NCBI GenBank assembly: GCA_038087875.1
Contig: CM075979.1
Location: forward strand, 21,762,001-21,826,000
Length of the DNA stretch: 64,000 bases
Source of the DNA: Malacoraja senta
Lineage: Eukaryota
Direction: 5' to 3'
Every line of letters begins with the position of its first letter. Positions within the stretch are counted from its first letter, which is position 1. Made by a program: the position numbers. Below are positions 31,101 through 34,100 of the stretch, in pieces.

Positions 31101-34100
31101 CCCATTGAGTCTACTCTGCCATTCAATCAATCATGGCTGAGCTAGCGCTCAACCTCTCAACCCCATTCCATCTCACCCCATTCAACTGCCTTCTCCCCAT
31201 AACCTTTAATGTCTTTACTAATCAAGAACCTGTCAATCTCCACTTTAAAAATACCCAATGACTTGGCCTACACTGCCATCTGTGGCAATGAATTCAACAG
31301 ATTTACCACCCTCTGGCTAAAGAAATTCCTCCTCATCTCTTTTCTAAAGGTATGTCTTGTAATCTTGTCATTTTTTTTGCACTTTTGTATTACAGAAGCA
31401 GAAATTCATCTGTCCAAAAGCTCAATAATTGGAAGCATCATTGGAAGTGTACTTTTTTCTGTAATGCTGTTAACGGCTGGAATTTACCTGTACATGCTGT
31501 ACATTTATAAAGGTAATGCTTATCTACTGTGGATGAATTTATAGAAAACGATTCAAAGAATCTTAAGTTATTTGGCTGGGGTACAATTAAATCTTTTTGC
31601 CTTCATGCTAATTTTAGTTTCATGTTTAAAAAATTCAACGTGGAAACATACCCTTCAGCCCACCGAGTCCACGCCAACCATCGATCATCCGTTCACACTA
31701 GTTCTATGTTATCCCACTTTCTCATTCACTCCCAACACACTTGGGACAATTTACAGAGGACAAATAACCCACAAACCCGCACGTTTTGGGGATGTGGGAG
31801 GAAACCGCAGCACCTGGAGAAAACCCACGCTGTCGCAGAGAGAACGTGTAAACTCCACACAGACAGCCCCAATGTTAGGATCGACCCCGGGGTTCTGGCG
31901 CTGTGAGGCAGCAGCTCTACCGTCTGCACAACTGTGCTGACCTAATTGTATAATTTTCTAGTTAACCTGTGCTGCACAAACTTGTGACAATTTTGGCATT
32001 GCCAACTATACTGTAAATGATTAATCTACTAACTATAAATGATCAATGATATTGTTGGTTAAGTTTGGTCCCACAAACAGTATTTAGCAGATATTTGTTA
32101 ATGATTATTTAAATTGATGTTCTTATTCCATTTCAAGTCCATTGCTCTGTGAAAGTGGTAACACAAGTAGATGGAGTGGTAACAAAGGCATAGGAGATGC
32201 TTGCCTTCACTGGTCGGGGAATGGCGTATAAGAGTCAGGATTTATAGGACTTTGGTTAGGCCACATTTAGAGTATTGCATGTGATTCTGATTGCCCATTA
32301 CCGGAAGGATGTGGAGGCTTAGGCAAGGGTGCAGAAAAGGTTCACCAAAATATTGCCTGGATTAGAGGGTTTTAGCTGCAAGGAGAGATGGGATAGACTT
32401 GGATTGTTTTCTCTAGAATCACCAGAAGATACGGGAGGCCGGATAGAGGTATATAAAATTATAGAAAGGATAGACAGTTGGAACCTCTTTCCCTGGATGG
32501 AAATGTCAAAGACTAGAGGGCAGAGATTTAAGGTGAAAGGGACAAAGTTTTAAATATATACGCAGGGCCAGTTTATTTTACACAGTTTATTATGGGTACC
32601 TGGAACCTGCTGCCAGGGATGGTGGTGGAGGCAGAAACGATAATTTTTATTTTAGAGATTTTTAGATAGGCACATAGACATGCAGTGAATGGAGGGATAT
32701 GGATCATGTGCAAGCAGAAGAGATTAGTTTAACAACATTATGATGGGCACAGACTTTGTGGGTCAAAGGCCTGTTCCTGTGCTATGCTGTTCTATGACTA
32801 TAAGTATTGGTTTAATTTGATATTCATCAGTCAGAAATGCTGATACCTCTATATAAGAATTCATATCCTCCATGCACTTAGTGCCATGAAATTGTAGGTG
32901 CAGTTTGATACAAATGTTTGTATTCATTAAACATTATCTTCTAACTTCAGAATGGCAGGCAGTGACTAGTGGGGACCGCAAGGCTCGGTGCTGGGACTGC
33001 AGCTATTTACAATATACATCAATGATTTGGATGAAGGGATTTAAAGTAACATTAGCAAATTTGCAGATGACACAAAGCTGGGTGGCAGTGTGAACTGTGA
33101 GGAGGATGCTATGAGAATGCAGGGTGACTTGGACAGGTTGGGGGAGTGGGCAGATGCATGGCAGATGAAGTTTAATGTGGATAAATGTGAGGTTATCCAC
33201 TTTGGTATCAAAAACAGGAAGGCAGATTACTATCTAAATGGCGTCAAGTTGGGAAAAGGGGAAGTACAACGGGATCTGGGGGGTCCTTGTTCATCAGTCT
33301 ATGAAAGTAAGCATGCAGGTACAGCAGGCAGTGAAGAAAGCGAATGGCATGTTGGCCTTTATAACAAGAGGAGTATAGTATAGGAGCAAAGGGGTCCTTC
33401 TGCAGTTGTACAGGGCCCTAGTGAGACCACACCTGGAGTATTGTGTGCAGTTTTGGTCCCCTAATTTGAGGAAGGACATTCTTGCTATTGAGGGAGTGCA
33501 GCGTAGGTTCACTAGGTTAATTCCCGGATGGCGGGACTGTCATATGCTGGGAGAATGGAGAGGCTGGGCTTGTACACTCGAGTTTAGAAGGATGAGAGGG
33601 GATCTTATTGATTGTTAAGGGTTTGGACACGCGAGAGGCAGGAAACATGTTCCCGATGTTGGGGGAATCCAGAACCAGGGGCCACAGTTTAAGAATACGG
33701 GAAAAGCCATTTAGAACGGAGACAAGGAAACACTTTTTCTCACAGAGAGTTGTGAGTCTGTGGAATTCTCTGCCTCAGAGGGTGGTGGAGGCCGATTCTC
33801 TGGATACTTTCAAGAGAGAGCTAGATAGGGCTCTTAAATATAGTGGAGTCAGGGGATATGGGGAGAAGGCAGGAACGGGGTACTGATTGGGGATGATCAG
33901 CCATGATCACATTGAATGGCGGTGCTGGCTCGAAGGGCCGAATGGCCTACTCCTGCACCTATTGTCTATTGTCTAACTCATGATAGTTGTGAATTTTAAC
34001 ATTGAAGCAGTTCACTTGCCTTTGATCTAATTCAATATCCTTATTGGTCTGAAGTGATCTGTTATTAAGAAATGTTGGGCTAATCTAGATGGCGGACCTG

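Follow-up and report, generated by a model that had tools for sequence, protein, structure and literature searches.

B7-H6 is a ligand by which natural killer cells recognise the cells that they should attack; little is known of its past outside mammals. The human protein comprises a signal peptide, an immunoglobulin (Ig) V domain, an IgC1 domain, a single transmembrane (TM) helix and a long tail, the latter not Ig-like and likened to retroviral Gag. Ig genes have their membrane exons at the 3′ end and choose between a polyadenylation site and a splice. For CD86deltaTM, spliced sCD80 and CTLA-4delTM, PMC6260693 describes how omission of the single TM cassette exon keeps the frame and gives a soluble protein. 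Soluble human B7-H6 is ascribed to ADAM10/17 shedding (PMC6836727). In the elasmobranch genes UrIg and UrIg2, the V domain is of the VJ type with a split leader, and in UrIg2 the TM and cytoplasmic parts come last, at the C terminus (PMC12227049). Here we analyse 64,000 nucleotides of the skate Malacoraja senta (the window; free of N), whose plus strand carries a ten-exon gene made up of leader, V, C1, TM and six C1-set exons followed by a stop. With a probability of roughly 0.55, we read exon 4 as the normally included anchor exon of a skate gene that belongs to an old, long form of the B7-H6 (NCR3LG1) family, its skipping being a minor or conditional event. The original prediction had made this exon a three-way switch between a long-tailed, a short-tailed and a secreted product of one locus; the long tail stands, the secreted form is argued by analogy with relatives, and the short tail is not supported.

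The anchor exon and its gene

Exon 4 encodes a juxtamembrane stretch and the TM helix within 117 base pairs at positions 31396-31512 (all exons of the gene lie on the plus strand). Its length and its phase of 1-1, both part of the original prediction, were recovered by direct reading and by script; the acceptor (...ttacag) precedes 31396, the donor (AAG followed by gtaatg) follows 31512, and both flanking introns are in phase 1. The donor fits seven of nine consensus positions, which is mid-range among the nine donors of the gene (5-9), and the pyrimidine tract is good. The exon aligned to 14 of 14 orthologues at 53-89% identity, with exons 3 and 5 colinear on either side. Of its 39 columns, 11 do not vary among the 14 orthologues; these include both exon ends as well as small residues at intervals of four within the helix. 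The segment is strongly hydrophobic, with a 19-residue hydropathy maximum of 2.26 in the 90%-identical orthologue. All 18 named orthologue records, which span skates, sawfish, stingrays, mantas, an electric ray, a sawshark and carpet sharks, contain a single such segment near residue 260 (2.1-2.8 on the same 19-residue window), followed by 604-691 residues. AlphaFold2 places a helix at residues 268-284 of the Leucoraja orthologue, within a low-confidence linker. Exon 4 is thus a real, conserved membrane-anchor exon that exceeds chance expectation, and it is normally included.

Inclusion is uniform in the available records. Exon 4 is present in 18/18 of the named elasmobranch orthologues, and seven of the nine members of the skate cluster are transcript-like sequences, on contigs that measure 1.2-3.9 kilobases (kb). 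Five of these span exons 3-5 (P0002, P0011, P0012, P0013 and P0015), and in every one exon 4 is present with exon 5 directly after it. The predicted long-tailed form is therefore supported by both sets of records.

The remaining exons frame this anchor in a regular manner. Comparisons with the window were run exon by exon, and full-length work used the named orthologue proteins. Signal peptide, IgV and IgC1 occupy separate phase 1 exons: exon 1 (26210-26276) supplies the start codon and signal peptide in 22 codons plus one base, ends in a phase 1 donor and encodes a peptide that agrees with the N-terminal ends of P0008 and P0009, two skate orthologues; exon 2 (26797-27147), delimited by splice sites, encodes a B7-type V domain with 56-93% identity to the 14 orthologues, just under the Pfam cut-off for V-set (E 2.6e-5; 24.8 versus 26 bits); and exon 3 (29162-29488) encodes a C1-set domain (E 1.2e-7; 66-95% identity to orthologues). 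Behind the anchor follow exon 5 (34682-35095; E 5.1e-8), colinear with the orthologues and with its cysteine pair kept in 14/14 and 13/14 of them; exon 6 (37011-37373; E 8.9e-10), likewise colinear; exon 7 (37799-38107; E 1.2e-15); exon 8 (39441-39767; E 1.6e-12), which according to the cysteine columns is devoid of the canonical F-strand cysteine; the divergent exon 9 (43182-43493; E 6.4e-4), with canonical cysteines in 7/14 and 8/14 orthologues; and exon 10 (45626-45927), whose stop codon (45925-45927) comes directly after the last C1-set domain, at the point where the chain ends in all orthologues. Pfam assigned C1-set to seven exons, exon 9 lying just under the cut-off at 20.5 bits. The Ig-type exons are 77-95% identical to the proteins of Leucoraja erinacea and Amblyraja radiata; with Rhinoraja longicauda, the identity is 72-89%. 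Each exon is colinear with each of the 14 orthologous proteins and exactly one junction residue separates neighbouring exons, which fixes the exon boundaries. The order V, C1, TM and six C1 domains with a stop after the last Ig domain, as first proposed, accordingly agrees with the orthologues exon by exon. No second TM exon was found in the gene, and the chain stops after its last Ig domain.

A TM helix in mid-chain is unusual for an Ig chain, and intron 4 measures 3.2 kb and is crowded with retrotransposon debris; both features would suit two genes misread as one, a B7 gene of V, C1 and TM exons and, downstream of it, another gene with six C1 domains. The spliced, transcript-like contigs, however, continue in five of five cases with exon 5 immediately behind the TM exon. 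Exon 4 moreover contains no stop and ends in phase 1, the phase in which exon 5 starts, the open frames of intron 4 were found to match neither Ig nor leader-like nor other families apart from the retrotransposon pieces, and the joined layout recurs from chimaera to amphibians. With spliced contigs crossing the junction between the TM exon and exon 5 and with the layout conserved, we reject the two-gene model as hardly credible.

Identity and spread of the long layout

The V exon points to B7-H6. Its top three of seven matches in the PDB are the B7-H6 chains 6yjp_C, 3pv6_A and 4zso_E (E 2.3e-5 to 2.6e-5), followed by CEACAM1 at E 1.6e-3, so that the margin of B7-H6 is modest. Exon 3 matches Ig constant domains and B7-H6, the latter among the top entries at E 5.3e-9. 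The elasmobranch proteins matched by exon 7 and the V exon are mostly named 'uncharacterized protein', and the record of Amblyraja radiata is called 'natural cytotoxicity triggering receptor 3 ligand 1' (B7-H6); the NCBI name NCR3LG1 is attached to three members, from Amblyraja, Rhinophrynus and Bombina. On the minus strand, 15.6 kb downstream of the Ig gene, lies an intronless gene resembling Kir6.2 (KCNJ11) at 61566-62807, with an intact open reading frame of 413 codons and the Pfam families IRK and IRK_C. Its best PDB match is ATP-sensitive inward rectifier potassium channel 11 (5twv_A, E 6e-161). Human NCR3LG1 neighbours the KCNJ11-ABCC8 locus within the same chromatin domain (PMC8065166, where the exact order is not given). 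Because position and V-domain likeness coincide, we assign the gene, at the level of sequence, as the B7-H6-position gene of skates.

The gene shares with human B7-H6, the ligand of NKp30, the signal peptide, IgV and IgC1 domains, the single TM segment, the long tail and the KCNJ11-like neighbour. It differs in the part behind the TM helix, which is made up of six Ig domains of the C1-set type with a stop after the last. Like UrIg and UrIg2, it is an elasmobranch gene with one V exon and many C1-type exons, and exon 7 matches the V-C1-C2-C3 structure 9dmx_A of UrIg2 (E 3.6e-13). The skate V domain, in contrast, is of the B7 type, the TM helix comes after the first C1 domain and none stands at the chain end; membership in the UrIg/UrIg2 group was rejected on account of V type and TM position. 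In the full-text literature, a search that left supplements aside, we found no description of Ig domains behind the TM segment of B7-H6-like genes, and the accessible portions of PMC6514059, PMC12619710 and PMC3964593 say nothing on the tail. Shark immune-gene models, which could name this gene, are listed in the supplements of PMC10751288 and PMC12227049.

The layout extends far beyond skates. A search with exon 7 among longer proteins gave seven matches out of 36 candidates, all from elasmobranchs and 890-974 residues long. A profile of the 14 orthologues (A1), run against 1.84 billion representative sequences, matched 2104 proteins at E<=1e-3, of which 212 reached E<=1e-30. We examined 151 family members, namely 150 among the matches listed and P0025, and 82 of the 151 have one TM segment at residues 200-360, at least 300 residues behind it and no C-terminal TM segment. 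Named members with the long form come from Callorhinchus milii, Latimeria chalumnae, Protopterus (three genes), Microcaecilia unicolor and Lissotriton helveticus; Rhinophrynus dorsalis and Bombina bombina, both called NCR3LG1, are further named members, and paralogues are present in Pristis and Narcine. The bird Apteryx rowi has a conventional short NCR3LG1 of 310-352 residues. Since the members run from chimaera and sharks to coelacanth, lungfish and amphibians, the long layout is, as judged from these sequences, old and widespread in cartilaginous fish, lobe-finned fish and amphibians. The skate gene at the B7-H6 position carries six further C1-set domains behind its anchor, in a layout that reaches amphibians.

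Skipping, topology and read-through of exon 4

Leaving out exon 4 keeps the reading frame and creates the junction codon GTT (Val) between exons 3 and 5. This symmetry in itself says little, because all eight internal coding exons (351, 327, 117, 414, 363, 309, 327 and 312 base pairs) are multiples of three. Isoforms annotated in the wider family were compared in 14 sets (Hypanus, Narcine, Chiloscyllium plagiosum, Microcaecilia, Latimeria, Callorhinchus, Bombina, Heterodontus, Mixophyes, Spea, Apteryx, Hyperolius, Pelobates and Dendropsophus). In three of them, one isoform is identical to the full form except for one TM-holding block of 37, 34 or 31 residues: X3 of the caecilian Microcaecilia unicolor, X2 of NCR3LG1 from the frog Bombina bombina and X3 of a paralogue from the horn shark Heterodontus francisci. 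The blocks deleted in Microcaecilia and Bombina start and end at positions homologous to the boundaries of exon 4; the tail of the Heterodontus paralogue is not Ig-like in appearance. All other differences within the 14 sets concern the N-terminus, the C-terminus or the inside of other exons. Alternative isoforms at NCBI generally require transcript support. For the predicted secreted chain of V plus seven C1 domains, the retained frame and the family precedent in three relatives hold, and its presence in records of the orthologue group does not. A choice between membrane and secreted form by skipping of exon 4 is plausible by analogy with these isoforms.

The described mechanism closest to the proposed one is the TM-exon deletion of CD86, CD80 and CTLA-4. 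As there, the skate TM segment lies wholly inside one exon of a length divisible by three, and the three TM-less isoforms of relatives imply the same mechanism. The consequence would differ, in that the TM segment encoded by those genes is followed by a short cytoplasmic tail, whereas skipping in the skate gene would take Ig domains totalling about 680 residues out of the cytosol and onto the secreted side. It would also differ from the human B7-H6 system, where the soluble form is ascribed to shedding and not, as proposed for the skate gene, to splicing. The original prediction had likened the locus to the secretory/membrane switch of Ig heavy chains. This comparison holds insofar as one locus could give membrane and secreted chains built of V plus several C1 domains; it fails for the competition between splicing and polyadenylation, as the skate membrane exon is internal and the choice would be one of cassette-exon skipping. 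Because of this internal position, and with the evidence for polyadenylation at chance level (see below), the Ig heavy-chain switch is a poor model for the locus.

In the reading that we favour, the default messenger RNA would join all ten exons and give a predicted type I membrane protein, with the V-C1 ectodomain outside the cell and about 680 residues, comprising six C1-set Ig domains, presumably on the cytoplasmic side. If exon 4 were left out, the C1 domain would be fused directly to the next Ig domain, because the exon is a self-contained phase 1-1 cassette, and the product would be a wholly secreted chain of eight Ig domains. Skipping would produce a minor or conditional isoform, as annotated in the three relatives, and a short tail made by read-through would not be a designed third output.

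The side of the membrane on which the six domains reside is a matter of prediction. A signal peptide and one hydrophobic helix are present, and everything after the helix is therefore predicted to be cytoplasmic. C1-set domains are otherwise a hallmark of extracellular antigen-recognition molecules (antibodies, T-cell receptors and MHC molecules, those of the major histocompatibility complex), and the real oddity of the gene is that six of them lie, by prediction, in the cytoplasm behind a conserved TM helix. The AlphaFold2 model of the Leucoraja orthologue, computed from a 14-sequence alignment, displays eight beta-sandwich domains (mean predicted local distance difference test score (pLDDT) 74.6, predicted template-modelling score (pTM) 0.44), with pLDDT values of mostly 75-90 for the domains behind the helix; AlphaFold2 and ESM Atlas agree on eight Ig folds and are silent on topology. 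In the 82 family members with the long layout, N-glycosylation sequons are enriched before the TM helix (263 observed versus 149 expected, ratio 1.76, compared with 0.91-1.32 for four control motifs), and no enrichment is seen after it (344 versus 307 expected, ratio 1.12, with the controls at 0.87-1.29), which speaks for a cytoplasmic tail. Among just the 14 orthologues, the two ratios differ little (1.21 before versus 1.04 after the helix).

Several observations weigh against the favoured reading, in respect of both skipping and topology. In the orthologue group, a TM-less record was found in none of the 18 named records and in none of the five spanning contigs, and skipping in skates is therefore argued by analogy. 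The contigs themselves derive from few assemblies of a close relative, that is from another species, and assemblers favour the major isoform. Furthermore, the domains behind the TM helix best match Ig constant regions, MHC class I alpha-3, beta-2-microglobulin, SIRP and UrIg2; for exon 7, the best PDB matches are Ig heavy constant domains, MHC class I alpha-3, beta-2-microglobulin and UrIg2. The Cys-Trp-Cys triad is present in at least 13 of the 14 orthologues for exons 5, 6, 7 and 10, and family-wide it occurs 0.69 times per domain length (105 residues) after the helix versus 0.83 times before it. Four sequon columns recur across lineages, in 11, 7, 6 and 6 of the 14 orthologues. C1-set likeness, triads and sequon columns are more in keeping with domains that reside in the lumen or outside the cell than with domains in the cytosol. 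The sequon and cysteine statistics hint in opposite directions, and the evidence on topology is split; a tail exposed to both compartments, according to whether exon 4 is included, would bring the two sides together.

Exon 4 might instead be constitutive, with no switch at all, in which case only the ten-exon TM form is made meaningfully and the TM-less isoforms of relatives are splicing noise or lineage-specific. This is a serious possibility, albeit one that we consider to fall short of probable. It accords with the inclusion of the exon in all named orthologue records and all spanning contigs, with its ordinary splice sites, with a frame symmetry common to every internal exon and with the absence of sequon enrichment behind the TM helix. 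It does not readily account for the same exact block being missing from annotated isoforms in three distant species, nor for cysteine pairs behind the helix that have been kept for about the whole of jawed-vertebrate history and are hard to explain without an oxidising compartment. If the anchor exon is regulated, the gene would also make a large soluble Ig-like protein, and it would bear on how secreted and membrane immune receptors arose.

More tentatively, and with doubts that outweigh our confidence, we put forward that exon 4 sets the membrane side of the six C1-set domains, which would form a cytoplasmic array behind the B7-H6-like ectodomain when it is included and part of a secreted, non-rearranging and antibody-like chain of eight Ig domains when it is not, both forms having been selected since before the split of sharks and bony vertebrates. 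C1-set domains that work inside the cell would represent a new setting for this fold. We know of no example of dual-topology use of C1-set domains, nor of C1-set domains working in the cytosol.

The third predicted output was a B7 protein of the conventional, short-tailed kind, for which transcription would read through the donor of exon 4 and the transcript would be polyadenylated in intron 4. Its elements can all be read in the sequence. Together with the last base of the exon, positions 31513-31544 (plus strand) encode ten codons, GNAYLLWMNL, followed by the stop TAG at 31542-31544, and the putative polyadenylation signal ATTAAA at 31586-31591 (plus strand), 74 nucleotides after the donor, precedes a T-rich stretch, the U-rich tract of the original prediction. 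The product was nevertheless not borne out, since stop and hexamer are readily given by chance and no database protein carries the tail. A stop occurs within ten codons at 43% of 2828 positions sampled in the introns of the gene (P 0.43), where the median open run is 13 codons. AATAAA or ATTAAA occurs 104 times on the plus strand of the window, so that the probability of finding one within 80 nucleotides is 0.116. Three of the nine donors have a hexamer within this distance, those of exons 4, 6 and 7 at 74, 77 and 67 nucleotides, respectively, and the donor of exon 7 is also followed by a short read-through of 13 codons. We accordingly regard the short-tailed form as an unsupported, chance reading.

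Database searches are in line with this assessment. In a word-based search of limited sensitivity, the read-through peptide was found in no protein of a set of 5.8 billion. A 48-residue query composed of exon 4 and the read-through returned one cluster out of five candidates, matched over 79% of the query, which corresponds to the exon alone. The V-exon search among proteins of 204-2000 residues, likewise word-based and of limited sensitivity, gave five matches out of 691 candidates, all of 949-972 residues and thus without the short-tailed product. No isoform of the type V-C1-TM-stop exists among the 14 isoform sets of relatives, and no chain ends just after the TM helix among the nine members of the skate cluster. 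Short tails do occur in amniote relatives of B7-H6, as in Apteryx rowi NCR3LG1 X2 (310 residues, 58 of them after the TM helix), and stop, hexamer and T-rich stretch are all present at exon 4. With these elements at chance level, with exon 7 displaying the same pair of features and exon 6 a hexamer of its own, and with searches that recover no such protein, a full three-way switch is nonetheless highly improbable.

Other features of the window

The window contains a retrotransposon of the long interspersed nuclear element (LINE) type at 3100-7185 on the plus strand, with an open reverse-transcriptase (RT) frame of 555 codons at 4430-6094 (RVT_1, E 4e-34). This frame is the only reverse-transcriptase match among the open frames scanned, which comprised 75 of 85 frames of at least 95 codons and 120 of 133 shorter minus-strand frames from 7000-25500. 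Gag, protease, integrase and envelope families were found in none of the scanned frames, and the element therefore has the look of a LINE-type retrotransposon and not of a retrovirus. A tblastn search with the RT frame of the window identified a 5′-truncated copy in intron 4 (32137-33883, plus strand), which covers residues 214-520, the last three fifths of the frame, at a mean identity of 54%. Because its five pieces fall in three reading frames, this copy is broken by at least two frame changes. In all, the search gave ten partial copies besides the frame itself, the one in intron 4 among them, at 35-70% identity and on both strands; they lie, among other places, in introns 2, 3, 4, 7/8 and 9 of the Ig gene. 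An open frame in intron 2 (28606-28998, minus strand) weakly matches the GIY-YIG nucleases of Pfam, with E values of 1.3e-4 to 1.8e-4 that reach or narrowly miss the cut-off, and is perhaps the remnant of a Penelope-like element. Neither the LINE copies nor this fragment overlap any exon of the Ig gene.

Some features touch the Ig gene without bearing on its anchor. CT-rich tandem repeats with periods of 15 to 134 occupy 25423-25908, just upstream of the GC-rich exon 1 and the presumed promoter. Read-through of the exon 6 donor remains open for 68 codons (37374-37579, plus strand), and the related-skate contig P0013 ends in the same peptide, which indicates that intron 6 retention or unspliced RNA has been sampled in public data. 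Intron 8 contains a tandem repeat at 41616-41928, with 4.3 copies of a 72-base unit at 94% match. The domain encoded by exon 9 is the most degenerate Ig domain of the chain, and isoform X2 of Narcine bancroftii (P0006 versus P0019) is without 72 residues inside it; some species may be able to do without this domain or may splice it alternatively.

At the far end of the window, the Kir6.2-like frame lies in GC-rich sequence and contains a glycine run in the region of the extracellular loop, through which the frame reads without interruption. On the other side of the Ig gene, an RPL27A-like exon is found at 12372-12509 on the minus strand (Pfam Ribosomal_L27A, E 7.6e-13). Human RPL27A also lies on chromosome 11p15, which would extend the synteny. 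An H/ACA small nucleolar RNA of the SNORA3/SNORA45 family at 16419-16549 (Rfam, 80 bits) is located on the same minus strand as the RPL27A-like exon, and the two probably represent an RPL27A host gene with its intronic small nucleolar RNA.

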